DNA of 64,000 bases from assembly GCA_002633005.1 (NCBI GenBank), contig NMRA01000083.1, positions 198,896 through 262,895 of the forward strand. Reading direction: 5' to 3'. The notes beneath the pieces are model-generated. The model was not told the origin of the DNA and made no database searches. It saw nothing but the letters and a program-made list of their open reading frames with translations. Below are positions 85 to 56,648 of this stretch, one piece after another (position 1 is the first letter of the stretch; each line of letters opens with the position of its first letter). The position numbers and the translations under genes are program-made. The stretch comes from Phoronis australis. Taxonomy: Eukaryota; Animalia; Phoronida.

Positions 85-4481
<4,397 letters not shown>

Positions 4482-20100: not shown

Positions 20101-23100
20101 CTATGGTAGGTCAATTGTCGGAGTATAATAGAAGGCCTCCAAATTTTATTCACTTAGGAAAACCTGCGTCACCTTAGATGGACAAAAACATCAACAAGAT
20201 TGAATAGTCGTGTCTGTTTTTACGTGGGGTTTGTGTGAAGAGGTCTGCCATGTTATCTTAAATTAGGACAAAAATTCTCTTGTTTAGGTCCGTCCCAAAA
20301 ATTTGGGACACTGAAATTCTAGCTTAAATTGTATTTTCTTTATTCTGAAGATTTGGAAATGGGTGATTTTGGAATTTATGATATTCCTCAAAATATTCAG
20401 CATTGCGTTTTGCATCAACAAAGTCCAAAAATCGACTTCGTAGCTCATATAATTTTCAAAATCAGCAGGCGGTGCAATGTTTTCACGTGTCGCCATACTA
20501 TAATGTGTCACATCGAGGTGAATTCAGTATTCTCCACAATGAAAAATTCAAACTCGACTGGAATTACAAAATTTATGTATATGTTTGAAAATCCACGTCC
20601 TGTAATCGGGGGAGTTTGTGTGTTAAGTCTTGGAATAAATGGATTGAACTGGAACCAAAATCCAAAATGTCTTGACTAATTTGCTTAAGAAATGACTAGT
20701 CTACCAATACTTCAAACTCATTGCATAGGTTTTCAAACACAATGCAAGTAAGCCAAGCTCATCACGACAAAATTCAAAGTTGACGCAGTGACAAGTCCCA
20801 ACAGGTTGTTCAAGAGACTCGAATGACGATAATCATTTGTTGTTGACCGTAATTCTTGAATTTGGGATGACCAATATTGCCTATTTCAATAACTTGGTAC
20901 AAGCCCAAACCTTGAGCAGAATTATTATTTCTTTACAGTTTCAAACTGAAGATTTTTTGCCACAATTAACCTAAATAACCAAAGCTGTTGGGTCTGCTCT
21001 GTTCATGCATTCCTGTGATTTATTATAAATGTCCCAAGATATCAGATAACTCTCTGTTGGAGGGGCGTAACTTGTCTACCTGCAAGGTGATAAGTTGGCT
21101 GCATTCTTACAGAATCCAGGAATGTATTGTGACTTCCACATCCTGATTAGGAGCTAAGGTATTGGCACACCTGATAAAGGTGACTGTATGGCTTACGGCA
21201 GTTACACGTGGTAAATGTGTGCATTGCCATATCCATTTTTATCTTCGTGAAAGATGTTGGATGTTAAGAGGTATTTTGTTACCTCACGAGAGTCAATACC
21301 TTACATATATTAATATATTATTTGAGCAACCGAATATAAAATCAGATAAATGAAATTTAATTGTCAGAACTTAAGTGTACTGGAGTGCACTGAAATTACA
21401 AACATTGTATCTTGAAGAGTCTGCATTTTTTACACGTCAGTTTCAGTGTGTAATGTCATTTTCTACTGAGGCGATTAAGTTATTGTTGCCTTCGTCAAAA
21501 AGAAATACATTCCAGTAACTTTGAATGAAAAAAATCACCTAAGTATGTTAGAGTTAAACTTATTTCACTGGTGAAAGTCATGGAACAAATGAGTTTTCTT
21601 TGTGCACCATACTTGCATTAGGTGTCTATTGTCATGCACAGAGTGACAACTTTCACCTCACCCCAGTCTTATATTTGTGTGTCACTGGAAATTGCTCCCA
21701 TCAGAAGTGAGGAAAATTGCACTACCTGGAGCGCAAATTATTCTAGGGAAAGCTGTGTGGACAGGACTTAAACCCCTGTTGGCCCATGATTTTTTCATTC
21801 ATTTGAAAGTATAGGCTAGTCCTAATGGAGTTTGGTAGTAAATTATTTCCTACTGAAATTTGCCACCAGATGTTGATTCTGTGTAAATGATTAGGGCACA
21901 AGGTCATGATACAGACTGCAGTTGTATAACTCAAGGTTCCTATTTGAGACTCTGAAGAAAACTTAACTGTGGACATCTCCGCACTGTAAACCAGGCTTTT
22001 TGAGGCTGAAATGTTCTTATATTTATTTTTGAAGAAATTCAACAAAACAAAATTTCACTCCTCAGCCATATTGTGTACTAAATAAGTGAAGATGTACCAT
22101 AACTTCAGGCAGCAGTGTTCGCCCTACCTTTTGTAATACTGTTGTTCTAGTGGACCCATTAAACAAATGGTTGGGGTTCATTTCAATTTCTTGTTGTCCG
22201 TAACCTGACTGTCCACAAGCCACTTTGATGCAGGTGTTTCAGAAAAATGTAGTCTGTAGCTATTTTTACCTATAGGGAGAGTAGACTAGAAGATAATTAA
22301 CTAAGAAATGAAACCATCAGTTTTCTTTCTTAAAAGGATACCAAACCCCGGTTTTGCGCATTAACAGCTTTCCCATCAAGTTCTCTGAAACAAAATAATG
22401 CACTGTAACCCCAGTTGACAACCCTCAAGTTTGGAGGAAAATTTAAAAACTCCAAAGTCTGCTAAAGGGGCAAGCGTGACCCATACGATTTTTGCAAACT
22501 ACACGGCAAGTGGGAAAAGACTGCTGACCAAGGACCATAATGTTCAATCCGTGACATAAGTCCCGTCCACACACAGCCTACTCTGGCGTTTCTGATTGGC
22601 TAGTCAAATTCTCATCAGGCAGCGCTTTAAGCAAACAAACTGGCATGACTGATGGACTGAAGTGTAAATGTGGTCTGTTGTACAGACAAATTGGTGCTTA
22701 AAATTTATGTTCAAGAAATGGGAATCCTAGAAATTGTGATTACGCCTTTTTGGAATGCGTGTTTCTACTGTCGATGACTTTTGTTTACGATACTGTCCTG
22801 TATTCGTATAGTATGAATAACACACCGGTTAAATCGGCCAGATATGTGTTTATTGTACATGTATGTACATGTATGTACTTCAAGCACGTGGCTATTAAAC
22901 ATCCCTGCAGAAACGAAATAGTTGCTGTGATGCCACTTGCTTGACAAGGCTAAAAATCGTTCACAGTCTGCCATTTTTTCACAGTGTTGTAAAGCTAACC
23001 AATGACTGCTGAGGTTACATCAACCAATGCCAAAGCGCGTGCCACTGCGTGATACCTGCGTGCTGGCTAGGCACGTAGGGGACCTCGCTGGTTCCCTTTG

Positions 23101-26100
23101 TGCCGCTAGGTGGTCGATAGCTGCGTGATAGGCCTTTACTAGATGCAAATGAGTGGCGAGAATACCAACAGTTTCACTGGAAAATCCTTGAGAAAATGTT
23201 AGCATTATGGCCTGCAGGCGAATGAGCTATCTACATAGTGGTCATTTTTGACTGTAGTTAGTCTGTTGCCTCTCCATCTGAATGGGTTTTAAGCGAAAAT
23301 TGATGTCAAAATATTGTTTGGCATGAATTGATAAACAAGGCCTCTTACTCAGCTTGCGTGTCCTTGGAAGGTCGGGCTACAAATGTGTTACCGGAAATAC
23401 CAGAAGTTTTGGGATAACTCAAACTACCGTCAAAATTGACCCTTGTAACCATTCATATAACTGGCATTTTTGCTACTTGCAAAAGTAGTAGCAAAACGCT
23501 AACGTTTTAGCCAATGTGTGAACAAAGCATTAGGCAACATCTCCATTCCTTAACTTAAAACTATTCTGACTGTCCATTCCATGTATACATTTCTATTTGA
23601 TTTCTGGCTTGAGAGTACAAAAGACAAACACTTTGTGCTGAACAAACTTCAGTGAGGATGCCCTAGGCCCAACAAGTACTCAGTATTTTTGATGTGGTTT
23701 GCTACTGGAAAATTACTAAGCTTCAGTTCTGTGGGATCTTCTATGTAAAAGGCACCTTTTGTAGTTTTACCGAAATGTAATCCAGTGGATTTACGCCCTC
23801 CTGTATGCTTGTTTACTGAACTTGAATTTAGCAAAAGAATGTAAGACTGATATCCTTTTGAACATAACAAGCCTTGATGAACTATGAAACTATTTTGTTA
23901 GCTCTTTACTAAAAGTGGACCCTTCTATATCTAATCTCGCTGCAAAAAATTCACTCGTCTGTGTGGTACTTACTGTATAACTAGTTTCCCTTTATAAACC
24001 TTCCTTGGGGTTCTGGAATACAATCTTTGGTACCCACTATAGCTTGGTCCTCGTATTGGCTGAAAAACTAGCATTTTTGCCAACACTTTTCTAGTTGAAA
24101 AAGTGCCAGTAATGTAAACGGTCATACTTGGCGTTTACTGTTCCGCCAGTTTGAATTGCCAAACTTGTTGCATTTTCCCTAATAATTTTGTAGACAGATC
24201 CTTTTCGTCAAAGGACACGTGAATCATGGAAAGATGCTTCTTGTTTATTGTTATATTTAGTTTATTGGAGTGAATGCCCCTGAAGGTTATGTAGGACCCT
24301 AGAAAAAGGTCCAGTTTTGATCAACTTCAGAGTATCATATCTCCGTAATGGTTAATCGAATTCACATGAAGCTTTGTTCTCCAAAATGCTGGTAGGAATT
24401 GTTTTGCATGAGGGGCTATCAAAAATAAGATTTATGTGATTTTCATGAAAAAACTTAAGTTGCATCAAACAAAAATGAAATAATCATTTAGAAAATTAAG
24501 TGCGATGATGTGAATATGAAGTACGTTGAAAATTTTTAAGAACTAGTTTCGTGTCGAAAATGATCCATCGTAAATCACTTAACCGTGTCCAGTAAGTATC
24601 ATGACGTGGTGCTGGGGAATAACACCGCATGATGCAGGCTATATGAGGTCCTAAGGTGTGTCATCAGTGCAAAGGTCACCTATTTTCTGAATTTTTTTGT
24701 TTTCACAGTCATGTACAAGCTGTCGGGGAATACAACTGCACTTTGTTTAGCATAGGTGATGTTCAAATAGCTTTGTCATTTAGTTCCTGTTATACATTAG
24801 CATAGTTAAAAACATACGAATACATCTTAAACTTTTGTGTCTTGTGATATTTTTGTACTCTTTTCCACCATGATATATGGTAAATTCACAAAGTCTCCCT
24901 TGTCTAAACACCTCACGTCTTGATGTTCAGTTTGTAGGTATTGTGGTAGTATCTCACCAATGCTGGTTACCAAAATTCACCATTTAAGTTTTCAAAGGAT
25001 TTTTGTGAATGCCTAGCATTTGGCAGACCATTGTCTGGTGGAAGCTGTGGCGTAGGACGTACAATGCTGTGCTGCTAACTAGGTTCTGTTGTGGCATATG
25101 AAATATGAAAATTAACATGTCTGCCATATTGCATCCTAAAGTGTCAGATTTTAGTGTATATGAGCCTTCTCATTGCTAGTGTGAATTTGCACGATACTAT
25201 AACCATGGTGAACCTATCGTCTTACCAATTGTAGGTCAAAGAAAAAAATTAAATTCAGATAAACTTTTTGGGGGAATCTGCACAATGAAAAATCGATCAC
25301 CAGTGCGTCAACCTGTTACACTTTTCTGATGTCAGCAGTCACGATGTGTCTGCGTGAACTGTTGCTTATCTGATTGTAAAACTGACACGTGTGATAAAGC
25401 GAAAAATAGTTTACCTCAGCTAAGGATTACCAATTCAAATTTTTAACACAGGTAAAGTGGTACTTTTTGAAAGAAAGATAGAGTTTTGGCCAGTTAATAG
25501 CAGTAAAGTTTCTTCAAATTGAAATATAATATTAAAATTTTCAACAAAAGTATTACTTGACAACTTTCTGTTGTACGAAAAACAAACACATGATAAAATT
25601 TTAAACATTTTGGCAATACAGTGAGCTTTTGAAAGATGAAAAAATTACACTTTTGGCTATTATTTTTGTTTGAATTTTAGAAAACGTTTCCATAATTTGT
25701 GTCGACTTTCAGTATTTAAGTTAATTAAATATGTATACACATTTCTCTAACTTTTTGGCTAATGACGGAAACCATCATTAGGGTACCGAAATGGGGGATT
25801 CTACCAATTAGGAGCAATAATTTGGTAGCAAGTGACGGTTACACTAGATTCATGATAAAACTCTATTCAGGTTGATCTGAGTTTTTAGCTGAGATGTTGC
25901 AGGAATGTGTGTATATTCGTGTTCTTGAATTTTCTGTTAAAGGTATACCTTACAGTGTTTTTCCATTATTTTAGTTGAACGTCATGAAAATACACCATAT
26001 TTTTGATACTGGAAATATTGTATTTGTCCTAATTAGTGCCAAGGGTGCTTAGAAAAAATCGATTCGGGAGGGGGGTGCTTATTGTAGCCTAAGGTGATTG

Positions 26101-29100
26101 AAATCCAGTCTTCGAAACAGGTGAAGTTAGCTGCTAGGATTCATCAAATTCACGCTCTGTGATGTATCTGTAGCCTATGACAGACTTTCCACAAAATTGT
26201 GATTCATTGCTATCAAACTTTGTTGTCGGAAAGTTGTGGGGGAAATTTCAGGGCGAAAACTTGCCAACTGATATGTCGCTGCCTCGCGATCGTCGATAGG
26301 GCAACTTGATTTATTCAATAAAAATAGTTTTGACTCAACAAATTACATGAAATCCTCCTTAAGTTTTCCAAATAGCGTACCTAAGATTTTTAATTTCCTG
26401 TGAAGTCGGAGTTAACCGCAGATTAAGTCCAAATCTGTGTTAGATCGCACCCTGCAACATGAGAAAAATCTGAACGAACACACATGTTGTTGTCGTGTGA
26501 CGTTTGTTTTGAAGTTCGTTTGCGTGTGTGTGCCGAGTGAACAAGATTCACTCCCATTGACAAGTACACTGTGTCTGTTCTGAAAGGCCAGACCATAGTG
26601 GGACACGTGCCTCGCGTGATCTGCGAAACTTTTGAGTTCTGCGGAAGTTGAAAGTGTTACGGCGAAATACCAACTTGTGGTCTAGAAATTTGGCGCACAA
26701 TGATTTTTTCAGGATATTATTGATAAAATGAAGACATTACTGTAGAATTTTAGAACTCGAGGCAAAGCATTTTTCATGTGTATACAAGTTCGTGGGCTTG
26801 GTACTTATTTTAATGAAGTCTGAATAGGTGTGGGACGCTTATTGGGGCATGGGCGCTTACTAGGGCAAATACGGCATGTTTTGCTCAGTTTTGCTATTTT
26901 CTAAAACAAAAAAAAATTTATTTGGTGCAGTGTTTAGTAGCTGCAGACATCAATAACTGCAAATAAGTAACTGGTACTTATTAAAGAGAGGATAAATAAT
27001 GGTATTGACTTGTGTCAACATGCTTTTTATCTGCGTATCAAAATATTTTTTCTTCACTTTGACTTGCATCTGTTGAACTGTTTCAGGTTGGAGCGTCCCT
27101 ATTTGCCAGCAACATCGGTAGTGGTCACTTCATCGGCTTGGCTGGATCTGGGGCAGCTAGTGGAATCGGAATTGCTGTGTTTGAACTCAATGTAAGTTTG
27201 TTTCTATGTATCATAGTTTGATCGCTAGACACAAGGCAAGATGTCATCTTTTTGAATTTGTGTTCTCACAATCCACATTTTGTGCCTGAATGTTATTCAA
27301 TTTGAGTTAGAATGTACTAGTTCAGTTTCATAAATGATGTGTCTTTGTAGGGAACACTTTTTCCATATATGGACCAGGCCTAGTACTCATGTCCCTTTAA
27401 GAAACTGGGTTCATGTTCTTATATTGGTGGAATATCAAGACTTGTCTATAACATGTACAATTATGGGACATTTTTAAAGTAGTCTCCATCCACAGAGAGC
27501 AGAGGGCTGTGTGCTCGTAGACAATCAAAATCACTAGAGCTCAATGGGTCACTTGACCTGTTCACATCATTATTACGTTTGAAACCAGTTTAGAGGTTAT
27601 AACTCTTGGTCTGAACACATTAAATCCAGTTGTAGAAAATGTAATAGTATTAAGGTTAGAACCCTGTGTGAGTGTGGTTTAACGACTTGTTATAAAAGTT
27701 ATAACTAGGTGTGAGTTGTCAGCCCAGTTGTAAAGGTTATAACTGGGTGTTAATAGTCATCCCAGTTGTAAAGGTTAACCTCCTAGGATCACTATTATTC
27801 TCCTATAGTCAACTTCAGAAAGTAATTCATTGACACTGACCTCCAGGGAGTAAAACCAGGAACCTGAGTATTTAACAGTTGTAATTCCTGGTGTGAACAG
27901 TAGCAATTAGATAAATGTTTTGACTCGGGGGGCACTGGTGACTATTACATTTAATAGTGTTTTCCCATTGGAAGCAAAACTTTGTTTTTACCGAAGTTTC
28001 AGTATGTGGGAAAGGTTAACGCCTGTAATAAAACTGCAAGCGAAACTTCACTAAAATGGTAGCATTTAAAACAAAACTTGTTGGTACTCACTAAAACTTC
28101 GGTGTAATGGGAACGATCAAAGCGAAGTTTCGTCGAAGTTATTTGTAGAGATCGCAGCAACGATATATGATCACGCGAGACTTGCAAAATGTGTACTTTG
28201 TCATTGTAGCATTGCTAACGTGCTCTCAATAGACGTAAATAAATTTATAAAAAATCATAACTGATGTAACAAACACTTGTAAATGGCAGGAGAACAATTT
28301 TCAGTTAGCCTCAAACCCACTACTAAATATTCATTTGAAAATCCGAATGAACTGCACCATCTGGTATCTACCGGATGATTGAATCACCATCTAGCGATAA
28401 CTTCGATATTGCTGTCGGAAAGGTTAGCGAAGTTTCGGCTAAGCTTTGGTTAACCGAAGTTCCTCTAAGGGGACAACACCGTCATACTTTATCGTGACTT
28501 CTATGATAACCCAGGTCAGTTGGGTGAGGTTACCATGTGGACCTGTGTTGCAAATCACTACACTAATTGCTGTATAAACAAACATCTGTAGTATTGAAGT
28601 CAGGTGCAAGTCTGATACAGTACATGTATTTAACCTGTACCTCAACAACCGTGCAAATCGTGCGGGCCTGTGCAGTGGTGAAGACTTATAGTCTCGGTCC
28701 CAGTCATGGCTAGTAATTTCATAACTTAAACCTACGAAACTGGTGAAATGTTAAATTCAAGAGAAATGAATCCTAAGTGTAAGTTGCCAAAAGAAATGTA
28801 CCCCCCTTGGTTTTAGTTCAGACATCAATATAGAAGTAACATGATTGTCATGTATCCCTGTGTTTGCTTCTGTTATAATTTTCCTTTTATGCATGTGTGT
28901 CCTTGTTACAATTCTTAGTTGGCAAAATGAAAGTGTTCTGTGAATGGCTCAATAAATAAATGCTACCCAGGTGAGAGAAATTTTGAGTATGCTTTTACAT
29001 TGCCTTGAACTGTGCGTATGCATACGTGAATGGAGATTTTCAGACTTTGTAATTAAGTTCTCCTCTATCAGAATCTCTTTAACTCTTCTCATTGTATAAA

Positions 29101-32100
29101 TTCCAGAAATATATTCATTTAATTTCACATTTAGTTGTTAGGAGCTTGGGAACTAGGTACAGAAGGTAATTGATTCTTGCACTTTGCATGGCAAAAATGT
29201 AGAATTTTAACTTTGTCAAGTTTTTAAACAAAAATGTTTCTAGTTCAGTATTAGCTTAGTTTGTTCTACACGGCCAGTTTCATTAAACAGCGCTTTTTAA
29301 TTTTTTTAGTGGTTGCTGCCAGATAGTGATCCTTAAAAATACAAAAATATAATTTTGTAAATTCTTTTTGTGCCAAATAGCTTAGAAGTACTATCCATTT
29401 TTTGTACGGTATTGATATTTCAAAAGCAAAGTTGACTTGCCAGTTAGTTATTTGCACAACTTTGTCTGTTGAGAGTGGAGTTTCAATGAAGACCTTTAAG
29501 CCTCTTATCGGTTTGACTGTAAACGAAAATCATTTTGGGTTTGGCAAACTAATCTTCGGTATGTCATGTCTCATGACAACTTGCATGCAGGAACCATACT
29601 GTGTGCAGTGCAGTCGTAGGCACATTTCAACCATTTGCCATTGGTCTTGCTATTTTTTGACCAATATTGAACTTGGTTTAGTAAAGCAGTGAGGTATTTC
29701 ACAAAGGACTACTTCAAAGAAGCAAAACAAAGAAGCAAAACAAAGTGACTTTTCTGAAGAATTTTGGCACATTAGCATATCTGTAAAAGCTCACCCCTGT
29801 TACGGGGCTTTCGTGTCAGCGTCAAGGGTTTGGAGAATGTTTATCAGCTACAGTTAACTTGGGTCCTGGGTTGAAGTTAACTGGACTACTCAGCTTCATC
29901 GCCGACAGGTGGATTTAACAGTGGAGCATCGATGCTTCAATACGTTATGAATGGCTAACGTTGGTGTCATTAAAGTTATCGGCAGGTGTTGTTGCCAATG
30001 ATGGCTTGTGTTGTGGTATTATTTGGTATTTCCTTCTTTAAACATTCACCATTTTACCTCTGCAAGCCCTTTATTTCATTTGTTATCTGGCCATAGATAC
30101 GATACTTAGAATTTAAAAAAATATGCCTGCTTAATGTTTTGGTGCTCCATCTTGTGATAACTTCAAAGAGCTGCGCATCAAACTGCAGTAAGTCCATTGT
30201 CCATAAACTACTCAATCCGGTGTGAAAGGTTCAACTAACTTACAGTTTACATCAACAGAACCGAAGTTAACTTGGCCTGAAAAGGCCCAGGTTTGCCCAT
30301 GGCTTGCTTCTCAGATGATGTTGTCAGTAAGCAGGATGATCATATTTTATTTGTTTTCTCAATTACTAGATATAAATTGCATAGCCCTAATTTAATGTTT
30401 CAACAATGACGATTTGATCTAAGTCCCATTTGTTTCTTTCAGGCCATATTTGTGTTGATGATCCTAGGATGGGTGTTTGTACCTGTTTACATCGCGGCTG
30501 GTGTAAGTACCACGTATTTGTCAGGTTTGGTAAAGACTCACCAATTCCAAACAAAATGCCATATTCAATTTTCTTCACTTTTCAAGGACCACTAATATTG
30601 TTACAAATCCCCACAATTTCTCAAAACATTGACTCATGTTTGCTGTGTTACAGAGCTTTATTTGGTTTTATAAGTTATTAAAAATGAAAAAAGAATTTCC
30701 CTTGTCCGCCACATTAAGTCCTAAATTGGTGAGATTTTATCGCATGCTGTATGACTGACATGCAAGTTGGAGGTGCCATCTCCTTGTTTCACACTATTTC
30801 CTGTTAGGTTTTTAAATACCCTAAACTATAAATTTTACAGTTATTTCATAAACAAAGTTTTGACTAGCATTTTGAAGTAACAACATTTTTCTACAAAGTA
30901 TTTTCAAAATAACAAATAAATTAATTTAACAATTGATAGGTGTGAAAACATTCAAATAGATTCATAGCTTACAACTGGTCTGATCTTATGAAAGTTTTAT
31001 TAGTGGAGTATTGCAGATAACTGGAACAATGTTGTATAATTCTCTTGAACTGGGGCTCGAGGCCTAAAACACCTGGGCCGAGTTGCATAAAGCTTCAAAA
31101 GTTATCCGCTCGATAAGTTTGATTGTTGCGTGATGTGAGGTGCATTGTTCGACAATAACAACGCGTGATAATGCGGCGCCATTGTTGCTATACGGCGTAT
31201 AACTTTTATGCAACTGGGCCCTGATTGATAAGGTTATGGCTAACCTTAGTATCACGTCTGTCGGTTTAATCAAATATAATATGTAGCAAAATCAAGATTT
31301 TACTGAGAAAAAGTAAAAAAAAATTGTGAATTCCAATCAAACTGTAGTCTTACACCAGTCATGTTTTGGTCACATGAGCAATTAGTTAGAAAAACAACAT
31401 ATAACGATGATGTGATTATGAAGTCGGTTGAAAATTACCAAATGTTTTTAAGAACGAGTTTTGTGTTGAAAGTGATATGCCATAAATTGAGTTGGTGTTG
31501 GGGAATAACACTGCATGATGCGGGCTATGTGAGCCTCCAAGGTATGTCATTAGTGCAATCAAAGGTCACCTATTTGCAGAATTTTTTGTTTTCACATTTA
31601 CAAGCTGCACTTTGTTTAGCATATATGATGTTCAAATAGCAATGTCGTTAAGTTCCTGCTATACATTACCATAGTTAGAAGCATGCAAATATATCTTTAA
31701 ACTGAATCTGTTCTTATATTGGCTTCTAGGTACTGACTCGGTTTACTCTGTAATTCATCCAATGCGTATGTATTCAACTGTGTGTTTAAAAAAAGTATAA
31801 CAGTGAGCAAATTGCTACCACATCGTCAATAAACCGCCCAAAAATATCTTTATCTAAACAGGTGTTTACGATGCCAGAGTACCTGAGGAAGAGGTTTGGA
31901 GGACAGAGGATCAGGATCTACCTAGCTGTTCTGGCCCTCATACTCTACGTCTTCACCAAGATTTCGGTGAGTACGATAATTTTCTGATAGGTGGAGTTGT
32001 TTTAATGCTAACCTTTTAAAGTACTATTCTTTACATTTCAGAGTTTCAAGTTTGATGGACGCTTAAAAATTGCAAACCAAATACTGCTCCGTCTTATTTT

Positions 32101-35100
32101 AGCTTCATTAGAAATTACCTGTCTGTCATTTGTGGCAAATACTTATGGAAATGTGGTTATGTCTGTGCTATTACTGTGTATCATGCGACCACACATAATT
32201 CTTACTCATACACACGCCTTGGTGGGCACTCCCACTTGGTGATTCCCAAAAAAGTAAAACCATGCAGTATCATGCAGGTGTTTTGCAAGTATGCCTCTTA
32301 ATATACCAAATGATTCCAATGAGGTGATTGGTCGGTGAGGTTGAATTGTTGAATTGTGGGATAGAATTTACCGTTTCAGTTTTGTAAGCAATGATTTCTC
32401 ATCGCTAGTGTACTGGGTTCACGAACCATCCGTGCTGCTCCGTGATTTGGTTGTGTTTATCCTTATGAGCATTAGGCCACAGACTCTCCTCTTAGTACTT
32501 TGTAAAGTGAAGAATTTCAATTTCAAAGCTTGACCTCGATAACTTGACCTTTACAAATAATTTGAAATGTAGGACATCAACCAAACTTTGTTGAATGGAT
32601 TCAGCTCAGTTTATTATTTTAGATTAGAATTTTATAACTTTCCAAACTTCAGAGATTGAGAAATATTGAACTTGGATAGTATTTGAAAAAATGTGCTTGA
32701 ACCAAAATTCTTGAATGAATAATTTCACTTGTCATTTATAAACAGTTATGCCTTTTTTACATATCTCTCACAGGCTGACTTGTACTCTGGTGCTCTGTTC
32801 ATTGAGCAGTCTCTCCACTGGGATCTCTATCTGTCAGTTATTGTGTTACTGCTGATATCGGCTCTCTTTACTATCTGTGGTAAGTCTCTCTCTCAACTCT
32901 AGTGTTTGAGATTTGCACTTTGCACAGACGTTTGTTTCAAGTACCAGCTTATTAATGAGTTATTGATGGTAATTTGTAATATGGTCACAGCTATCAGTAT
33001 TGCTGTTACTTGGTAAAATAAAATTTGCCAATTGTATTACTCTGTTGTGAAATTTTGTTACTTGTATTGGAGTGACTAAAAATGCGTTATTTGTTATCTG
33101 TGCTTTTCTACAATCGGTGTGTTACAGGTGGGCTGACGGCTGTCATCTGGACTGACTTTATACAAACAGTCATCATGGTCATTGGTGCATTTGTGCTTAT
33201 GATAATCAGTAAGTATGACAGCTTTAGTCAAGGTATAAAGCAGCTCACTGACTGCAGATGGTCTTCAATTTGAACCACGATCTTGAATTTCGGACTTGAT
33301 GCTGAATTATTTCTATGCAACCACTTAAGTATATGTTGTCGCATAATGCTGTCATATATGTTGGTCCTCTCGCTTTCTATTCAGTATCTGTGGCTATATA
33401 TCCTAATCTCATTCTAAGATTTTTGAGAGATTTGGCAAGCCTATCCCTATGAATGTGACAGCAGATGACAAACCTTCAGACAGATCCAATTACCACTGTG
33501 TTTTTTACTTTTTCCTCTATCTTCAGAGTTCCTTGACATATTTTCGTGAAATTTGGCATTAGGTTTATATCATTGAGATGGTTCGTGACACCTTCCCATT
33601 TTTTGGTGAATTTGATGTATTCTATGTCACATAGTGAGTGCTTTTATTATTTTAAATTTGCCTATCTGGCAAACCAGTCAAATGATCATTATGAATATTG
33701 GCACATGTGTTCTGAGAAGAGCATAGCTGATGATGATTTTTGGACTGGTCGAACTACTCTGGCAAATTTGTTTTCTTGATGAATCTTCTTGAATTTGTAA
33801 TGTCTTCTTGTTGACGAGCGTACTACTGAAATTTATTTTGGCACAAATCTGACTACTGTGGAAACCTCTTAAGTGGCAATTTTGGTTTTCTTTTCATTTG
33901 CATGGATATCTAACAAGTTCCTTGTTTAATGTTTACATGAAATTTGTCAAATAAGTTATTGTTACTGAGATGACAACATTTCCCTGGTTTCAGGCACATG
34001 TATCAGTGCTGTATGTGATGCACGTGTATCAGGGCTGTATGTGATGCACGTGTATCGGTGCTGTATGTGATGCACACGTATCGGTGCTGTATGTGATGCA
34101 CGTGTATCAGTGCTGTATGTGATGCACGTGTATCAGTGCTGTATGTGATGCACATGTATCGGTGCTGTATGTGATGCACGTGTATCGGTGCTGTATGTGA
34201 TGCACCTGTATCGGACGGGTGCTGTATGTGATGCACATGGTTGGCGCATATCAACAATATGTGCTGCTCTTGCTTATTCTGAAAATAGGGAAAAGGATGA
34301 TTCTTGTTTTTGTCATTTTGTTGTAATGTGTTAACAGAAAAATTTAACATTTTTAGTGAATACCTTGTACATGTGCACTATTGTTGAAATGTCTTGCATC
34401 CAATTGCAGTTATGACAGTGGGCCTTAAAGATGATCTTATTGTTATTGTATTTAAAATAATTATAATGGGAAATCAATGATAATTTTTAATTTGAGGATT
34501 TTTCGCGCATTGGATTTTTGTTAGAACTAAAATTGCACAATTCCTTTTGAACAGGTTTTGTAAAGGTTGGAGGAGGATTTGAAACGATCGTGGAAAAGTT
34601 TTTCACTGCAGTTCCCAACGTCACTCTCCAAGCTATTCAAGGCTACGAGATTGACAGCAACCTGACTAAATACGTGCGCTGTGGCTTCGTGCCTCAGAAT
34701 TCCATGCATCTGATGAGATCTGCTGATGACTCAAGCCTGCCCTGGCCTGGGGTCATAGTTGGTCTGACCATATCATCCGTATGGTACTGGTGTTCAGATC
34801 AGGTTGGACGGTCGATCGTGTACTTTTTGGCTAGCGCGTGCTAACTGGCTAACACTGTTTATTTATTCCAGCTTCGCTCACTCTTACTTTTTGGTGTTGG
34901 CGTTCTTGTGTATTCACCTTGACTAATGCGTGCTAACAGTCTAACGCTGTCGATTTCTTCCAGCTATGGTCACTGTCACGGTGTGGGGTTGGTGTTCTAC
35001 TATGCGTCTCTTTCCTTGAATTTTTCTTATGTTTAAATTGTCATCATACACACGTAATGACCACCTGTGATGGTGGTGGATGCGCATGACATACATTTAC

Positions 35101-38100
35101 CAGACAGTACAGCTTCACATGCAGTTAAAACTTCTCAAAATTGCATACCGAACCCTCCCATGACTTCTTTGAAAGGCTCAATGAAAATTTGATTATAATG
35201 AAATTCCCAATGCTGTTGGCTTGGGACTGTGGTTAGAGGTAGCTTAGGAAAGGTTTGCCCAAGCTCTTGAAATAACCTCGACCAAGTTTCAAGAAATGTT
35301 GACAGATGTATTTGAGCCAGAGATGCATATTCATGGGAGGTCACTATCAATCTTCATTTTTAGTGCCTGCTTGTGGGTTAGGTATTATGCTTCAGCACAT
35401 TTGCGAAATGGCTTGTGCATCTGATCAGTTACCCGATCAAACACGAGCTGAAAGGAATTCTGACCAATCACGGAAATGCAATAGCATTTATATTTTATCA
35501 AAATTTCCCTGGCCAAGTTCTTGATTTACCTCAAACGTGTTTCAAGAAATGTTGACGGATATATTTGAGCCGGGGATATACCTATTCAAGGGAGGTCACA
35601 ATTGTCATCTAATAACTGCTGCTGGATTAGGGTACTATAATTCATCCAACTGCTGATTGTCTGGTGTGTCTGATCAGGTACCCAATAAACCACAAGCTAG
35701 CTGAAGTGCATTCTGACCAATCACTGCAAGGCAATACAACGTTACGTTTCATTGGGCCACACTAGTGTCCTAATTTTGATCACGGTTCAAAAGCTGTAGC
35801 CACAAGCATGTACTACATGAAATCAAGAACTATTAACACCTCTGTTTATTTCTTGTGTTGTGCCTTTAATTATCACTGCCGTCTTCTCGCACAGGTCTTA
35901 CCAAACTGGGTTCCTTTGAGAATGTCATTTCCAAGTTCTTTGAGGCCATTCCTAGCACAACGTTGTATTCCAATGCCAGTTACAACTACAGCAAATGTGG
36001 CATTCCGCCACCTGATTCCATGCATTTCTTCCGTCCAATTGATGACGGTGACCTGCCCTGGTTTGGTGTAATCTTTGGACTAACCGTTTCTGGTGTTTGG
36101 TACTGGTGTTCTGATCAGGTTTGTTCACTAACCCCGTGCTGTTTTGTGAAAGCTTAAATCATTGTTCGCACTGCCTATAAAAGGTTTAAAGCTTAGAGCC
36201 TTGATCTTGAATAGTCCTTGAATATAATTTTGGCCATTTGAAGCCTTGAATTTCAGCATTTAACCTTGCAGATATTTGAAAGACCTTAATTATAAGCAGA
36301 GTATGCTATTTAAATTTTTATTGCAGTTGCTAAAGGGAATTATTTTTTAAATGACCGGCAGGGTAGATTTTACTGTCCCTGTTTTCTTTCAATAAAGCAA
36401 TTCCTGTTTAGTTCCGTGTTATACAGATAGATGGAGCCGATGTCCCCTACTCTCTGCTTTCACAATTCAGCAGCTCTAATTTTGGTATTGATGAAAATTT
36501 ACCTGCGAGGAACACCATTGAAGGAAGACGTCACAGTTTCACCCTTTTGCATGGTGCTGTTTCTTGTAACGTGATATTCTCAGTCTTGCTTTTGTTTACT
36601 GTGCTTAATATTACTCTGACAGTTTCTTGTTTCTGTAACCAGTGTACATTGATTACTTTCTGGGTTTACGCTAGTCCTGCTCCTGCACTTGCTCTCTGTC
36701 CATTCTCCGTTAACTGTTATCCCAACCAGCACTTCATTACATTAACGTTACTGGGGATTTCTAAAAGGGCCCTCATTTAGGTAAACCCCCCAGATGGTAC
36801 TCTGTAGGATCATTAGGGTCTGTTTCATGTGGAAGCCACATGCAAAATGTCATATTTCGTCATTTTTTGGCTTTAAGATTATATTTCAAGTTGATCGCTT
36901 GTCCACAGAAGCGTTGACTGGCCTCTGCTGTTGTAGCCAAGCTGCTAACAAAGTGGAACCTTCCTCTAGCAATAGAGATATTTTAACATTTAAGTCTCTT
37001 GTTAAAACAAATTCGCCTGTCCCCTGCCAGTTTCTGTGTTTTGCGAAAGAAATTAAAAGTCTGAGACACAGATCTCTTGGAAATTGGCTTTAAAATAAGT
37101 ATGAAAAATTTCGTGAAAGTTTACAAAACTAGAAAAATCAAAAGGTCGAAAAATGTCCAATTGGGATTTTCCAAGACTTGCACATTAGCTGCGTTAACAA
37201 TACATTTAAAGAAATGTTAAAATACCTGAAATTTAACAGTTTAGTTATGGAAGTTGAGCTCTCCAATAGTATTGCACAGATTGTTAAAGTTAACACGTGG
37301 TTCCCTCTATAGGTGATTGTGCAGCGTGCTCTTGCTGCCAAAGACCTGTCCCATGCTAAGGCTGGCACCCTATTGGCTGGATACCTCAAGTTCCTGCCAC
37401 TCTTCCTGCTAGTCATACCTGGCATGATTGCTAGGATCTTGTTTCCAGGTAAGGCATCGTACACATCTGCATCCAACTGTGAATGAAGTTGCAGCTTGTA
37501 CCAATTTACACATTGTGCCTGCTCGTAATAAACAACAATGAACTGCCAGTTCTCAAAGCAGTTAAAATCACTTAGTTGAGTGTAGAACATGTTAGTTAAG
37601 TTTTAGAGTGTTAAGTGGTCGAAATCTGTTGGAAAGGTGAGTTTATATGGCAGGGCTAAAATAATTTTGTAATGACATTGATTTTTATGTTTTGATGATG
37701 AGATTGAATTAAAACTTAATGTTAACCGCTGTGACACTAAAAGCATGTATGGTGTGCATTTTCAAAATGGTGTTCTTAGGTCTGTTCTTCAAAATGATGG
37801 TTATCCTTTACAGACCGTGTGGGTTGTGCAGATCCAGAAATTTGCTTCCAACAGTGCAAAAGCAGGTCAGGATGTACCAACATGGCCTACCCCCTGCTGG
37901 TCATCAAGCTGATGCCAGATGGCGCTAGAGGTCTCATGCTTGCCGTCATGATGGCTGCACTCATGTCTTCCCTCACCTCCATCTTCAACAGTAGCAGCAC
38001 TATTTTCACCATGGATATCTGGAGACGCATCCGCAAGCACGCCTCAGAAGTTGAGCTGATGATTGTGGGAAGGTGCGCTTAATAGTTGCAAAAATGCTAC

Positions 38101-41100
38101 AGCATGGATTGCAAAAATGCTACAGCATGGATTGCAAAAATGCTACAGCATGGATTGCAAAAATGCTACAGCATGGATTGCAAAAATGCTTCAGCATGGA
38201 TTGCAAAAATGCTACAGCATGGATTGCAAAAATGCTTCAGCATGGATTGCAAAAATGCTACAGCATGGATTGCAAAAATGCTACAGCATGGATTGCAAAA
38301 ATGCTTCAGCATGGATTGCAAAACTGCTTCAGCATGGATTTCAAAAGGTCCCACATTCCAACTGCGGTTGAGATGGGAATTTTTTTAGTTTTTAGACACG
38401 AAGTGATGTGACCAACAAGTGGAGGTTGAAGAGGTGCATTGTACTTACGTTCACTGGCTTTGGTCAAATGGTTTACAAGTCTATCGAGAGATGCCAATGA
38501 CGAGCAGCCATTTTGGTCAATCTTGAGTTGTGGACTCCTGACAGTCATTCAGTAGTTACAGGTGTGATTTTGCCTTGAGGCAAGGCTTGAGAATGTGATG
38601 AGATACCGTGGATCTCGAGGGTATTTCAAACCTTATTCACAAAACTTGGACGTTTGTATATATGCCTAGATACCTTATCTTCATTCTCGTGGAACTTCAG
38701 ATGCAAAACGTATACCGTGTAATTAGAAAAGTTTTAGCAGAACCACCTTGGAACTGCACAACCTCGTGGAAATTTTACTACTCATCTGAGGTCAAAGGTT
38801 ACAGGGGTGTCACTGAAATTGAATCTCCCACCACACATAGAGAAGTTCCGTATGTACCCTCAGTCCTTTCATTCACTGAGACACCATATTAGGGAGTCTA
38901 TGAGGTATACATAGGACAGGAAGATGCCAGGGAAAACGAAGACAAAACAGTTTTGGTTCTGAGGGAGTTGTGCGTCTGCACGCATATGACCGTTGAGAAC
39001 GAACGCACCGTGTCCGAGTCTGCCTCTGGAACTTTGTGTTCACGAACACCGCAAGTTATGAAAAGAGTTAAATCCTCACCCAAATTCACTAATTTGATCA
39101 GTAATAACATTTCAATCTCATGCTCACACGCTTTAACTACTGACTGGGTTTGTGTTGTCCATTTCGTACTTGGTTTCCTGGCCCATGGTGTGTATAAAAA
39201 GGAACTGTTGACCTACGTAAAATGAAATTTTGACTTAAAGATGTTGACGTAATGATAGCAATGGCACATCAATATAAAACATATTTTATAATCTCTGGTA
39301 TTTTTTCTTTCAGAAAATATATACTTTTACCAGTTGACAAAGCCTGTTTTCTGACATAATGAGTTAGAATGAAGGTCACTAAATAAGGTTTGAGATAACC
39401 TTAAGAAAGATCTACTTGCCACAAGCTCAAACCATTTATCTTTTGTCCTGGAACTTGAGAGGGTCATTGTCTGCAATAGTCTCTGAATGATTGAAAATAC
39501 ATATCATTTGAGTGAATTGTATGCACTCTCTGTTTTATGAAATCGTTTTTCTGAAGTAAAAACAATTAGCAATTTTGGTAAAGCAAACAACAGCGCAGAT
39601 ATCAAGGGTGTTGCACTGTTTGGTGTTTTCCATGAACCAGAAATTTTGTTAATTCCAGTGGGCTTCTATTAACACAATTGTTTGATTATCTTTTTTGTGT
39701 TATGCTTATCTTGTTTCTCTGCTTTAGCATTTGCTCCACACAACTTGTTCTTATCATCTTGCAGATTGTTTGTGGTTGTTCTTGTTGCCATCAGTGTCGT
39801 ATGGATTCCCATTGTGCAGAATGTTTCCGAACTATTCCACTACATTCAGGCTGTCACTAGCTACCTAGCGCCACCTGTGTGTGCTGTCTATGTGCTAGGT
39901 GTGCTGTGGAAGCGAATTAATGAGAAAGTAAGCTTCTTATAATTAAAATTTGTCAAACTTGATTAAAAATGCAACTGTACTTCTGTTGCACAGCTTCATA
40001 TACACTCACTCACACTCTCTGTATAATTTCTAATAATCTGGACTGCAATTGTAAAGCAAATTGCTAATAGAGATTACAGACATACAAGTTGCAGTAGTAG
40101 CTATATTTCGAGAGCACATGTCTCCTAGTCCTCAGGTAAAATGAACACGTTGGAAGCGAAATATAAGCTGCTATTTTAACTTGTTTGTTTGTAATGCCTG
40201 TTGGCAATTTGCTTTCCAACTGCTCACTGTGAGATTTTGGAAGTTATTCAGGGCTTGGAATTTTCCTCTTTTACGAGGATTCCCTCTTTTTTTGGTTTTG
40301 ATTTCCTCTTATTTGATTTCCAGTTTCCTCTTTTTTGTTTCTTTTTATTATTATCTTGACTTTATTCATGCAAAAACATTTATTTCAGCTAACTTTACAA
40401 CTCAAAAATGTTTCTGTCACACAAGCCTTTTTATTTGTGGAACAATACATCACCTGGAAAAATTTCGTGTTTTTTGTCATTGGTCTTTCCAAGCCGTTTA
40501 TATCAACCTTTGCAACAGAAAGTACAGCCGTGTTTTTAATCAAGTTTGCATAAATGAAGGGCTACTGCCAAATTATTTGTCACTGAATTTGTGGCTGCAA
40601 TTAGGAATTTACTGCTTTGTGGCAAAAGAACTGTATTGAGCACCGCTTTAGCGGTTTGAAAATGATCACCTTTAACGTAAACTGAAATAAGATTGTTGGT
40701 TTTTATTAAGTCAGAAGTAACACCTGGGAGCTCCATCCCGACCACAGTCTAACCATCGCAAATCAGAAGTGTTAATTTGCCTTATTTTTCGACTTGATAT
40801 TTCGTGAGTCATAGGGCAATTAAATCAAAACCGATTCTTGCTATGTTTGGAAGGCAAGGGAAGTTTACTAAGAACCCATACATTTTTGGAATGTAGGTCA
40901 GCAGGGTAAAGGAGCAGATTGTAAAATTGAAGAAATTTTATGTATTCATCATAATTTCACTTAAATTAATTCATGGTTTTATTTCCTCAAGTTTTTCACT
41001 GAACTTAGTCCGTGGTTTTATTACCCAGTGAGCAGACAACTAAAAGTTATGTGTGAGGTATTAGATTTTAGTTACATATTTATGGAGTGGGCATTGCTAA

Positions 41101-44100
41101 TGTAATATCACCTTAGCGTGCCACATCTTGTGCAATATTGAAGTGTTTATTCTGACTAATGCAACCATCAAATCATCAGAAACGTCGATGAATATTCATG
41201 TTAAATAATGTAATTTACAAGTTGAATGAAAAAATTTAAACTATGATCACATTAGTTGTGTTCAGCTAAACAACTGAAACTGCAATGTTTGGCCATTCTT
41301 GTTGAGTGAGTTGTTATGACTCATTTGATCTAAATTTAACTCAACTTAGACTATTAAGTGCCACCACAAGAGTCTTCAAAGCACAGGTTTTAAGTGGTAA
41401 GGATCGTTTATTTGTGAATGATTGCACAGTCACTTACATCACAAGCATTAACTTTGTGTTTGACATGAAAATTGGATATAGCTTTGTCGATAATTAGATG
41501 TTGTACTCTTCAAAATGATTTCTGTATTTTTTTAAATCTCTGTTTTTTAAAAGACCAGTGTAGTGCTGTCCTAGTGACGAGTTCTGTTCACAAAATCCCT
41601 CACATGGTGGTCATATCGCATCATGAGAATTCAGAATTTCTGCAGTTTTTTGCCTAAATAGTGAAGAATTTGTGCAAAAAATAGAAAATATTGAAATTGT
41701 AAGTGCTGACTAATTATCTGCAATTTTTTTACCCGATTACCACAGTGTGATCATTTAAATGGTCAACTGGTTATAATGATGTATGATATGTTAAGCAAAA
41801 AGGCTTTAAAATTCCTTTGAAAAATTGACTGTTTCGGTAAAATCTCAACTACTATGGACAAAAATAATTGCCGTGATTGAGTATTTTTCTTTTTTCCAAT
41901 GATTTCTAAGACTTTTGTCAAGGCATGCCCACATTCTGATTGTAGCTGTGATGGAAAACTTAAAAATGAAATGTTAAAGTATTAATTTGGTGCTAATAAT
42001 CTTTTAAGAAAAAGTGAAGAAACAAAACTTCATTTGTTGCCCCTCTGTATCCTACATTATCAAGATTTTGCAGTGTTGGTTCTATTCACCAGGGGGCGTT
42101 CTGGGGTCTGATGGTTGGTCTGGTGTGTGGCTTGATAAGGTTCATCTGGGAGTATGTCTACCCTGTGTATCCATGCGGTGAAGAGTACCTCGACACCAAG
42201 CCAGACATCATCGGCAAGGTGCACTACTTGCATTTTGGCATCCTGCTCTTTGGCATATCAGCTATTGTTACCATAGTGATCAGCTTGTTGACTCCGCCCA
42301 TTCCAGATAAACACGTAAGTGATTCACTGTCAATGGATTATTAGCTTGGCGTGCTACAAGTCTGAGAAGTAACAAAAGGGTACTTGCATTGCTAGTGGTG
42401 TGGAAACCAATCCGTTTGTGAGTTCATCGTTTGGGTTGTTTTTCATGACCTGACCGCAAAAGAACTTGTACAAACAAGATGTTGAAAATGTTTGGTACTT
42501 CACAAACCAACCGGTGTACCTACTGTGGCGAGGTTCAGACTTTTCAACATTTGATTCACAGCTGCTTGTGGGACTCCCTACACCATTTCGTAAATAAAGT
42601 TAAACTTTTTAATTTGCATATTAAGCCAACTGTATGTCACTTTTTAATTTTGCTTCTTTGGCAAACAAAGTGAAGTCTTCACTAGCTACCTTGTATACTC
42701 GTGTCCGATACTATATTTATACGTCATCAAGACAATGAGTATCAACAATGTTTTAATAATTTATAATCTATATTATTGGATACTGTGAACGTTATGTAGC
42801 CTTGTCATACCAGTGGGTGTTATGTAGCCTTGTCATACCAGTGGCAGTGTTTTTTACCACTTCTTTATCTTATCGTAATATAATTTTACACAAGTAATTT
42901 AAGTTATGCCTAAGTTTTTGATGTAGATTAGCCTATGTAAAAGTAAATATATGTACTTTGTTATTCTATTTGAAAGAGCGCAAGAGTGAATGAGTGCATG
43001 AAAATACTCCTCCTTTCTGTTATGTCTCTTTTACAATAATCTACTGTTAATTTCATTTCCCTGCACTATGGGTTCCATTCGGAATAATTATTAGATTAGC
43101 ATGATGCATTGTTATTCATAGAGTAGGGACATGTAGCTGGAGGTTTATGAAAAGTATCTGACCGCAATATCTCGGGCATTGTACCTGAAAAGTCTCACTG
43201 CTTTAACTGCTGTAACAAGTCATGCCCAAAACAAGGTTCATGCACGTGTCCACAGTTGACGGACATAAAACTGCTTTCCAATAGAAATGACGAGCATACT
43301 ATTCAGTCATGTGACCTGCAACAATGTACACTCATTGATGTTAACATTAGCTCTAATGCTGCAAATGTTTTCAGTTGCACCGGTTGACTTTCTGGAGTCG
43401 CCACAGCAGTGCGGAGCGCACGGATATCTCTGAAGCTGAAAACATAGAAATGAGCTCAGCAGGTGGAATAGATAACGTAGCAGCAGAGAGTGACGTGAAG
43501 ATGACGGACAAGGACGATGCTACTAACCTTGAAATCAAAGGTGGGTAGGACATGTGAAAGTATGATAAAAAATTTTCAGTTTGGGACAGTCTCTGAAACT
43601 CATCATGCCAAACTTTAAACCAAAATTGAATTTTCGTGGTTTTGAAGATTGGCATGTAGATGATTTTGGAATTCATTGCATTTCTCATATAATTGAACGC
43701 TGCTTTTTGTATAAACAAGTTCACTCTGAAAATAGACTTATCAGTTCATAAAATGGTAAAAATATAGCTGCCTAAGCAATGCCTCCCCATAGTGGGTTCT
43801 AGGTGAATGACCATTTGTCGTTATTCATAATTCTTGAATTTGGGACGGCCAATGTTGCCTATGTCTAAAATATGGTAGAATCTCCAACCTCAAGCAAAAT
43901 AATTAATGTTTCACTGTCCTAAACTGGAGAATGTTTTCCGTAGATAAACTGGATTAAACAAGCAGTGAGCATTGATTATAGTGGTCCCCTCCAGTTATTG
44001 TTTGTGTCCAGGAATTCCTTCGTCACAATTTATGTGTTTAGAAATGTGGTCTGATGAAAGCTGCAGGACCCTCAGGATCATGTGAGCCAAGAGGATCACA

Positions 44101-44752
44101 AACAGTTCAAGAACTGGAATAAAATGTCTGACTGAATTGGAATACTTAGGGTCTTGAAAGTTGAAACTCCACCCCTTGGCACTGCGTTACTCAGAGTGCA
44201 CTTGAGGGTGTGAGAACACCCGTAATTCAGATCTCGTCCTAATGTGACCTATGTTTACATGGAGCCCAGAGAGAACCACACTTGTCTAACAAAATACCAA
44301 TGACACTCTGAAATATCGATAATGACTAGGAACAATGATTTTGAGGCATTGAAGCTCAAACTATAGTCTTGACAATCTGAGAATAAAAATGACTTAAGAA
44401 ATACATGTAATCGGCCATTTTGCTTTTTGTAGGTGTGACTTCAGATATCCACTATTTAGTCTAACACACTTGTTTCAATATTCACTAAGAGTGTATAATG
44501 TGTTTCTCAATATGAATTTGTGTAATCCAACTCATTACTCATACAGAGGACGTACCAATACCTTGGTGGAAGAAGGCTGTCAATTGGATCTGTGGTATCG
44601 AGAAAATCCATGACATGTCCGATGAAGAGAAGGCAGCGCTGGAGGTGAAGCACATGAATATTGAGGAGAAGCCAATGTTTGCACGCATACTCAATGCCAA
44701 CGCCATCCTACTGATGAGTCTAGCCATGTTCCTCTGGGGATTTTTTGCGTAA
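14152..44752 (+). CDS. SLC5A/SGLT-family Na+/glucose cotransporter (SLC5A1/2/9/10-like). Exons: 14152-14283, 15753-15821, 27087-27191, 30443-30502, 31862-31966, 32774-32879, 33128-33208, [34555-34802 OR 35895-36118], 37313-37448, 37814-38072, 39765-39927, 42093-42314, 43375-43540, 44547-44752. Product is 685 or 677 aa.
   Basis: All exons join in phase with AG acceptors and GT donors (intron 1 has a GC donor). Motifs: [105 protein letters not shown] and C-terminal LWGFFA*. Equivalents of hSGLT1 N78, H83, E102, Y290, W291, K321 and Q457 are retained. The exact vertebrate paralogue cannot be assigned. Confidence 0.96.
15194..15506. mobile_element. MITE with ~80-bp imperfect TIRs in SGLT intron 1
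   Basis: GGTTGCATGAAACAGTCC...CTCAACAAAGTTCCCTA versus TAGGGAACTTAGTTGAG...GGACTGTTTCATGCAACC. Confidence 0.8.
20283..21000 (+). repeat. Interspersed repeat; other copies at ~43575-43980 (+) and ~1080-1245 (-)
   Basis: Shared blocks TTTGGGACA..GAAGATT.G..ATG..GATTTTGGAATT and TAATTCTTGAATTTGGGA.G.CCAAT.TTGCCTAT; the reverse complement GGCAATACTGG..GCCAAATTCAAGAAT is at ~1210. Confidence 0.75.
24600..24830 (+). repeat. Interspersed repeat; second copy at ~31490-31700
   Basis: GGTG.TGGGGAATAACAC.GCATGATGC.GGCTAT...AAAGGTCACCTATTT..GAATTTTTTGTTTTCAC...TGCACTTTGTTTAGCATA..TGATGTTCAAATAGC in both places. Confidence 0.85.
26019..26876. mobile_element. Non-autonomous DNA transposon (pogo/Tigger-like TIR) with a HIRAN-like ORF relic
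   Basis: Left TGTATTTGTCCTAATTAGTGCC, right GGGCGCTTACTAGGGCAAATACGG. Internal relic [24 protein letters not shown]...GLEI...F.G..IDKMK at ~26550-26745. Confidence 0.65.
27558..27900. mobile_element. Probable MITE with internal short repeats
   Basis: Ends CTGTTCACA / TGTGAACAG; internal repeated CCAGTTGTAAAGGTTATAACT units. Confidence 0.5.
31073..31221. mobile_element. Small PIF/Harbinger-like MITE
   Basis: TIR GGGCCGAGTTGCATAAA / TTTATGCAACTGGGCCC. Confidence 0.7.
33994..34239. repeat. 26-bp minisatellite (~9 copies) in SGLT intron 7
   Basis: Unit GCACGTGTATC(A/G)GTGCTGTATGTGAT. Confidence 0.95.
34555..34802 (+). CDS. SGLT exon 8a (mutually exclusive alternative, 248 nt)
   Basis: tttgaacag|GT TTT GTA...: (S)[82 protein letters not shown]|gttgga. 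Phase 1 in, phase 0 out. Confidence 0.92.
35275..35737. repeat. Diverged tandem duplication (~253-nt period) between exons 8a and 8b
   Basis: Both copies: GTTTCAAGAAATGTTGAC.GAT.TATTTGAGCC...TATTCA.GGGAGGTCAC...TCTGATCAG.TACCC...ATTCTGACCAATCAC. Confidence 0.85.
35895..36118 (+). CDS. SGLT exon 8b (mutually exclusive alternative, 224 nt)
   Basis: cttctcgcacag|GT CTT ACC...: (S)[74 protein letters not shown]|gtttgt. Phase 1 in, phase 0 out. Confidence 0.92.
38087..38340. repeat. 23-bp minisatellite (11 copies) immediately after SGLT exon 10
   Basis: Unit TGCAAAAATGCT(A/T)CAGCATGGAT. Confidence 0.97.
40249..40497 (+). mobile_element. hAT-like MITE, copy 1
   Basis: TIR CAGGGCTTGGAA / TTCCAAGCC; collinear with the copy at 45848-46091. 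Confidence 0.8.
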
Positions 44753-56465: not shown

Positions 56466-56648
56466 ATTGATTTTTGTGGTGGAAAGTGGGTTTATCAGCC
56501 AACTTAAATGAAAAGTCCGGGGAGATGGCATTGCTGTTACTTTTCAAATCTTGTTTAATGTAGTTAAACACATTAAGATGCGAACATCACTCGGTAATTA
56601 ACATGCTTTATTATTTATGTCTTACAGCCTGGCATTGATGTCTATAGG

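Follow-up and report, generated by a model that had tools for sequence, protein, structure and literature searches.

Structure of the gene and of the duplicated exon

The DNA analysed here, referred to as the window, is a stretch of 64,000 nucleotides (nt) from the phoronid Phoronis australis (contig NMRA01000083.1, positions 198,896 to 262,895 of the forward strand). It harbours an SGLT-like gene of the SLC5A family in which exon 8 is present in two homologous copies, 8a and 8b, separated by a spacer of 1092 nt. Table 1 gives an overview of the gene model and of the elements around the exon pair. Exons 1 and 2 of the model are based on sequence and homology. Intron 1 (14284-15752), which lies outside the RNA read mapping, is apparently of the GC-AG type with the donor GCAAGT. 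The Pfam profile PF00474 (SSF) matches window exons 3 and 10 and also the Tubulanus isoforms described below. Lophotrochozoan 'SGLT4-like' proteins are the nearest relatives (about 70% identity), and in a tree calculated without exon 8 the gene is placed inside a lophotrochozoan clade (92/95) and outside its mollusc subclade. A protein search with exon 8b alone as query gave no match, and a cluster look-up for 10 exon-sized open reading frames returned no names.

Exon 8a consists of 248 nt (82 codons) and exon 8b of 224 nt (74 codons), both lengths being 2 mod 3. Each copy has an AG acceptor, a GTT donor and an open frame, is entered in phase 1 and left in phase 0, contains the loop Cys and terminates with WYWCSDQ. 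The sequons are NVT/NLT in one copy and NAS/NYS in the other. An earlier reading of the bare sequence, here called the original prediction, had described the pair in these terms, and we reproduced its coordinates, lengths, splice sites, phases, spacer, motifs, sequons and donors in full. It had also called both donors weak compared to GTAAGT-like donors elsewhere. Indeed, 9 of the 12 other donors of the gene fit GTRAG, the remaining three being GCAAGT, GTGCGC and GTGGGT. Either copy alone preserves the full frame. As predicted, the frame is broken when both or neither are included: 8a together with 8b leads to a stop at codon 361 inside 8b (36071), and omission of both to a stop at codon 235 inside exon 9 (37359).

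At the protein level 8a and 8b share 54% identity (40/74 aligned residues), with 58/76/43% identity at the three codon positions. The proportion of differing silent sites (pS) is 0.70 and that of differing replacement sites (pN) is 0.32. Silent sites near saturation combined with a low pN fit an old duplication with both copies under constraint, as the original prediction had it. In all six comparisons pN (0.30-0.39) was below pS (0.61-0.81). No further duplicated exon of the gene was found in the window by tblastn with both isoforms. The spacer between 8a and 8b contains two tandem 253-nt units (35255-35760) which are 73% alike, each with a stretch resembling the end of exon 8 and a CCAAT-like box. 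In the second unit this stretch (35650-35679) is followed by GT (p ~0.01, uncorrected). The units may represent further exon copies that have decayed, serve as decoy donors or be a repeat of unrelated origin.

Table 1 Position of the SGLT-like gene and of elements around its exon 8 pair (window coordinates)
Feature	Position	Strand	Properties and evidence
SLC5A/SGLT-like gene, 14 coding exons plus alternative exon 8	14152..44752	+	Open frames of 685 aa with 8a and 677 aa with 8b; Pfam SSF
Exons 1-7	14152-14283, 15753-15821, 27087-27191, 30443-30502, 31862-31966, 32774-32879, 33128-33208	+	
Exons 9-14	37313-37448, 37814-38072, 39765-39927, 42093-42314, 43375-43540, 44547-44752	+	
Exon 7, common upstream exon	33128..33208	+	Donor GTAAGT; RNA joints 33208-34555, 33208-35895
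Exon 8a, long loop, Ser at hSGLT1 position 287	34555..34802	+	Donor GTTGGA; sequence, RNA joints, contig of run X1
Ser codon of exon 8a, equivalent to hSGLT1 T287/hSGLT2 S287	34776..34778	+	Alignment
Tandem duplication of 92 nt just 3' of the 8a donor, candidate splicing-regulator sites	34827..34998	+	Four CTAAC, one ACTAAT, two TGGTG
Exon 8b, short loop, Gly at position 287	35895..36118	+	Donor GTTTGT; sequence, RNA joints
Gly codon of exon 8b at position 287	36092..36094	+	Alignment
Exon 9, common downstream exon	37313..37448	+	RNA joints from 8a and from 8b

Use of the two exons in RNA

For the region 32700-38100 we used a contig set (X1) and three stranded RNA-seq runs (X2, X3 and X4), the latter all from a single study. 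Between 18 and 19% of each run was read, and a joint was accepted when at least 3 reads from 2 starts supported it. All four junctions expected from inclusion of a single copy were present in each of the three raw-read runs. Joint 7-8a was covered by 5, 4 and 39 reads in X2, X3 and X4 (48 in total), 7-8b by 31, 9 and 36 (76), 8a-9 by 4, 4 and 34 (42) and 8b-9 by 13, 13 and 12 (38). Exon 8a was also present in a contig of run X1. Joints 8a-8b and 7-9 did not reach the threshold of 3 reads from 2 starts in any run, a count that products removed by decay would escape. A second read mapping confirmed RNA joints from exon 3 through exon 14; the counts for the pair are those of the first mapping. 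The predicted mutually exclusive splicing is thus seen in RNA, and we have hardly any doubt that the splicing switch is real.

One of the copies could conceivably be a pseudo-exon, belong to a paralogue or have arisen as an artefact of assembly or haplotypes. This explanation is refuted, as RNA reads join each copy to the same pair of exons, 7 and 9, and intronic reads cover the spacer. Furthermore, the silent divergence of the copies is far beyond the allelic range and the same pair occurs in other genomes, so that we give practically no weight to it. Considering the RNA junctions and the pairs in other animals, neither of the outcomes named beforehand as contradicting a switch was observed, i.e. 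use of one exon only with neutral evolution of the other or its absence from relatives, or an artefact.

The share of 8a among the upstream joints was 14% in X2, 31% in X3 and 52% in X4, and usage was heterogeneous among the runs (chi-square p 5e-4 for upstream and 5e-5 for downstream joints). Run X4 represents a different genotype, for which two silent codons and one Lys-to-Arg change are listed as variants of 8b. In the three introns flanking the pair the depth of sense-only reads was mostly 1-9 (0-9.5 by bin), compared to 0-0.04 in introns 6 and 9. This high depth indicates that the introns around 8a and 8b are likely spliced late. The weak GTT donors of both exons may account for such late removal, which would keep the choice between the copies open to regulation.

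Three X2 reads skip 586 nt (35124-35711) with non-canonical ends, spanning most of both 253-nt units, and probably reflect a polymorphic deletion. Intronic repeats at 30584-31811 and 39794-41021 attract reads from both strands and from many loci and are likely mobile elements.

Effect of the exon swap on the protein

Exons 8a and 8b each align to residues 225-295 of human SGLT1 (E values of 2e-14 and 1e-10 against 7WMV). Pocket residues are numbered according to the alignment to wild-type hSGLT1 (7WMV), in which the Ser and Gly codons correspond to T287, while N248 and C255 lie in the same exon. This agrees with the residue mapping of the original prediction. The common exons keep N78, H83, F101, E102, K321, F453, Q457, T460 and C511, the partner of C255, and both exon copies agree in L274, positions 283 and 286, W289, Y290, W291 and C255. 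Motifs with the SGLT pocket residues N78, H83, E102, W291, K321, Q457 and T460 and with the C255/C511 pair are found in both isoforms, for which Na+-coupled sugar transport is predicted. Position 287 is the single mapped sugar contact that differs between the copies. The fold was checked on the structure model of Tubulanus isoform X2 (pLDDT 82), which adopts the SGLT1/2 fold (E ~1e-45). In this model the exon encodes the last part of a membrane helix, then the extracellular loop and then the helix bearing the WYW motif.

A link between position 287 and sugar selectivity, claimed by the original prediction, is documented. The residue contacts the C4 group of the sugar in human SGLT1 and SGLT2: S287/T287 (S287 in hSGLT2) forms a hydrogen bond with the C4 substituent, which A287 of SGLT3 cannot form (PMC12322204). 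The exchange T287N reverses the binding preference for glucose and galactose in favour of galactose (PMC11061222). T287A belongs, together with H83L and Y290C, to the substitutions by which SGLT4 accepts mannose and fructose (PMC12605011); H83 and Y290 are unchanged in the window gene. The usual Ser hydroxyl would make the 8a isoform a canonical Na+/glucose carrier, and 8b would lose the hydrogen bond at position 287 in the manner of Ala287 in SGLT3 and SGLT4. Since the remaining mapped contacts (N78, H83, E102, Y290, W291, K321, Q457, T460) are common to both isoforms, we expect the swap to adjust affinity and the preference between epimers, not to bring in an entirely new substrate.

Exon 8 pairs in other animals

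The exon pair is common to several phyla, a finding that goes beyond the original prediction. A pattern scan of metagenomes yielded at least 120 loci, mostly intronless among those listed. Of these, 11 were scanned with an exon-8 profile, and one of the 11 contained two exon-8 copies, several loci being too short to judge. The gene on this contig (L034) has introns and clusters with annelid sequences (87/92); across 358 constitutive residues it shares 73% identity with the gene of the window. As in the window, two copies lie between exons 7 and 9, first one of 236 nt with Ser and then one of 221 nt with Gly. Both are 2 mod 3, either alone is in frame, and their weak donors GTTAGC and GTTTGA both start with GTT. 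The equivalent of exon 10 (1021-1400, minus strand, ends approximate) is split by an additional intron.

Further pairs were found in automatic protein models, which stand here in place of DNA. RefSeq isoforms X1 and X2 of Tubulanus polymorphus (XP_074640671/XP_074640673) differ exclusively at residues 212-279, giving a long Ser and a short Gly form. In Owenia fusiformis (CAH1801178/9) 380 identical downstream residues follow different versions of exon 8, both with Ser. Models of Petrolisthes and Chionoecetes chain two exon-8 copies in one protein, first the Gly and then the Ser copy, and each copy is orthologous between the two decapods (100/99). Automatic annotation is wrong or incomplete here: besides the two chained decapod models, one Owenia model starts inside an intron. 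No additional pair was detected among the 230 long proteins screened. Isoforms X2/X3 of Haliotis rufescens were rejected as an exon swap, as their 41 differences are scattered over residues 31-252 and look paralogous. P0336/P0341, with 8 differences in exon 8 and differing flanks, were likewise judged paralogous, while P0002, P0004 and P0314 were excluded as fusions of whole genes. The Lingula isoforms X1/X2 (P0005/P0006) of the same family are identical to residue 544 and then continue with homologous but different C-termini, i.e. alternative last exons.

Gly287 is present in 6 of 174 distinct single-motif proteins and in 12 of 144 exon-sized matches, and occurs in one copy in four of the five lineages with a pair. 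When the window was left out and the lineages were taken as independent, binomial p values for this enrichment were 0.001-0.014. The rarity of Gly287 in single-copy genes and its presence in most pair lineages speak against an explanation in which the splicing is real but both isoforms carry the same sugars. In that case the swap would tune the loop, by way of glycosylation, gating via C255-C511, trafficking or salinity tolerance, and Gly287 would be a side feature. Most differences between 8a and 8b do lie in the loop, the number and place of sequons differ between the copies, and the Owenia pair has Ser in both. Moreover, the C255-C511 bridge affects the conformational change of the empty carrier and the apparent affinity (PMC2151483). 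We regard this explanation as unlikely, albeit worth keeping in view.

In the tree of the exon itself (70 columns) all five groupings obtained p values of 0.22-0.37 in the approximately unbiased (AU) test, and one or several origins fit alike. Both Owenia copies are nearest to 8b and the order of the copies is reversed in decapods, which hints at more than one duplication event. The AU tests did not reject lineage-specific duplications (p 0.24-0.33), and a single copy seems to suffice for mollusc orthologues. Both observations would suit a pair of nearly equivalent exons, in which a redundant duplicate is policed by the reading frame and kept because any included exon must work. Nevertheless, both copies are intact in several phyla despite nearly saturated silent sites, usage varies among samples and the Gly change recurs, which makes such redundancy improbable.

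Selection of one exon

The class of tandem duplicated, mutually exclusive exons is defined by neighbouring homologous exons which possess splice sites of their own, agree in their phases and appear one at a time in mRNA between identical flanking exons. Constraint on both copies is moreover visible as pN<pS, L034, Tubulanus, Owenia and two decapods carry pairs as well, and the window pair belongs to this class. Inclusion of both exons or skipping of both would shift the frame, and the products would presumably be cleared by nonsense-mediated decay.

Steric exclusion operates where the branch point of the downstream exon lies no more than about 50 nt from the upstream donor and no AG intervenes. 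The window does not support this arrangement, as the intron measures 1092 nt and AGs occur from about 34870 on. CTAAC motifs are located 39-47 nt 3' of the 8a donor, but AGs follow. The CTAAC cluster is a product of local duplication, is absent at the equivalent place in L034, and its CTAAC and TGGTG motifs resemble STAR-family and ESRP sites. A GU-rich stretch common to the window and L034 was not significant (p 0.15), and none of seven intron region pairs compared between the two loci showed significant conservation.

The ends of both exons can pair with 36501-36517, with duplex p values of 0.50 and 0.07 and a fold z of -1.8. A nested stem (36104-36120 with 36501-36517, 36137-36153 with 36456-36472) could bury the 8b donor, at a z of only -1.8. 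In L034 a local hairpin was the only structure (p 0.03 among 7 tests; z -1.15). These duplex and fold statistics give no clear support to a docking-site/selector model of RNA structure.

Interpretation

Taken together, the choice between two exons 8 exchanges the large extracellular loop along with the sugar-site helix that bears WYW, and we consider it fairly probable that the Ser-to-Gly change at residue 287 alters sugar handling. It would likely render the 8b carrier of lower affinity or less selective for glucose than the 8a carrier. The original prediction had proposed two transporters from one gene. Its splicing and residue mapping hold, while the difference in substrate, kinetics or inhibitor sensitivity is still something we infer. 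More tentatively, the switch might be as old as lophotrochozoans or protostomes, or might have evolved repeatedly. The Ser/Gly toggle might then let gut, skin or nephridia use either a glucose carrier of high affinity or a sugar carrier of broader range or low affinity, a job that vertebrates split among SGLT1-5.

Several observations weigh against this view. About 40 further residues of loop and helix differ between the copies, so the effect may come from the loop. The Ser/Ser pair of Owenia indicates that a pair can persist without Gly. Between exons 7 and 9 the metagenome loci L070 and L003 contain a single copy, an exon-8 swap was found in none of 10 mollusc clusters, and the independence of lineages assumed in the binomial calculation is not established by the trees. 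As the runs come from one study and X4 from another genotype, the change in exon ratio may be genetic and not regulated. Joints with fewer than three reads are unlisted and decay could hide faulty products, which places strict spliceosomal exclusivity beyond these counts. Finally, the 8b-9 joints (38) amount to half of the 7-8b joints (76); nearly identical exon ends, which leave short overhangs unassignable, explain a part of this gap only.

Other features of the window

A phosphomevalonate kinase (4815-5459, plus strand, PF04275) and an Mpv17/PMP22-family protein (56598-57344, plus strand, PF04117) are each encoded by a single uninterrupted frame. Two frames on the minus strand (58808-61118) resemble methyltransferase exons, presumably ETFBKMT-like, and gave no Pfam match on the pieces. 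Minisatellites are located at 33994-34236 (26 nt), 38086-38346 (23 nt) and 11509-12638 (19 nt), the last flanking a run of about 630 N.

Comparison with known systems

No report of exon duplication in SLC5A was found among the titles and beginnings of abstracts listed in searches of open-access literature, subscription papers and supplements lying beyond this scope. The Tubulanus isoforms are already present in RefSeq, unremarked. Ancient swaps of homologous exons have been compiled as tandem duplicated exon substitutions, with enrichment and convergence in ion-transport genes (PMC9741552). Compared to these events the window pair represents a new gene family and new phyla; SLC5A is not mentioned in the text or in one supplement, which fall short of the full event list.

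Human SGLT1, SGLT2, SGLT3 and SGLT4 (PDB 7WMV, 8HG7) share the fold and the pocket residues, and position 287 varies between Thr, Ser and Ala among these paralogues (PMC12322204, PMC12605011). Whereas vertebrates vary this position among genes, the window gene varies it by exon choice; the papers searched yielded no duplicated exon 8 in the human paralogues. Natural, otherwise identical SGLT pairs exist in several phyla which differ in one exon and repeatedly at a residue tied to sugar selectivity. Human SGLT1 and SGLT2 are drug targets, and such a pair could test the role of position 287, because the engineered S287T exchange in SGLT2 is inactive (PMC12322204).

The kind of splicing itself is already known from NKCC2 (SLC12A1), and SLC5A adds a well-studied transporter family to it. 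NKCC2 is likewise a Na+-coupled cotransporter, whose tandem homologous exons 4B, 4A and 4F are used one at a time and swap a transmembrane helix and loop (PMC7818487). It differs by belonging to another family, by having three copies, by a change in ion affinity and by measured kinetics and zonal expression. The swap in the window gene concerns a helix of the sugar pocket together with an extracellular loop; its exon lengths are not divisible by three, and the functional effect is predicted. In coq-2 of helminths a mutually exclusive alternative exon of an invertebrate gene changes the choice of substrate; coq-2 is an enzyme with genetic proof, in contrast to a transporter with a putative effect (PMC7434440). 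By analogy, the window pair would work most like exon 4 of NKCC2, and like coq-2 if substrate choice changes.

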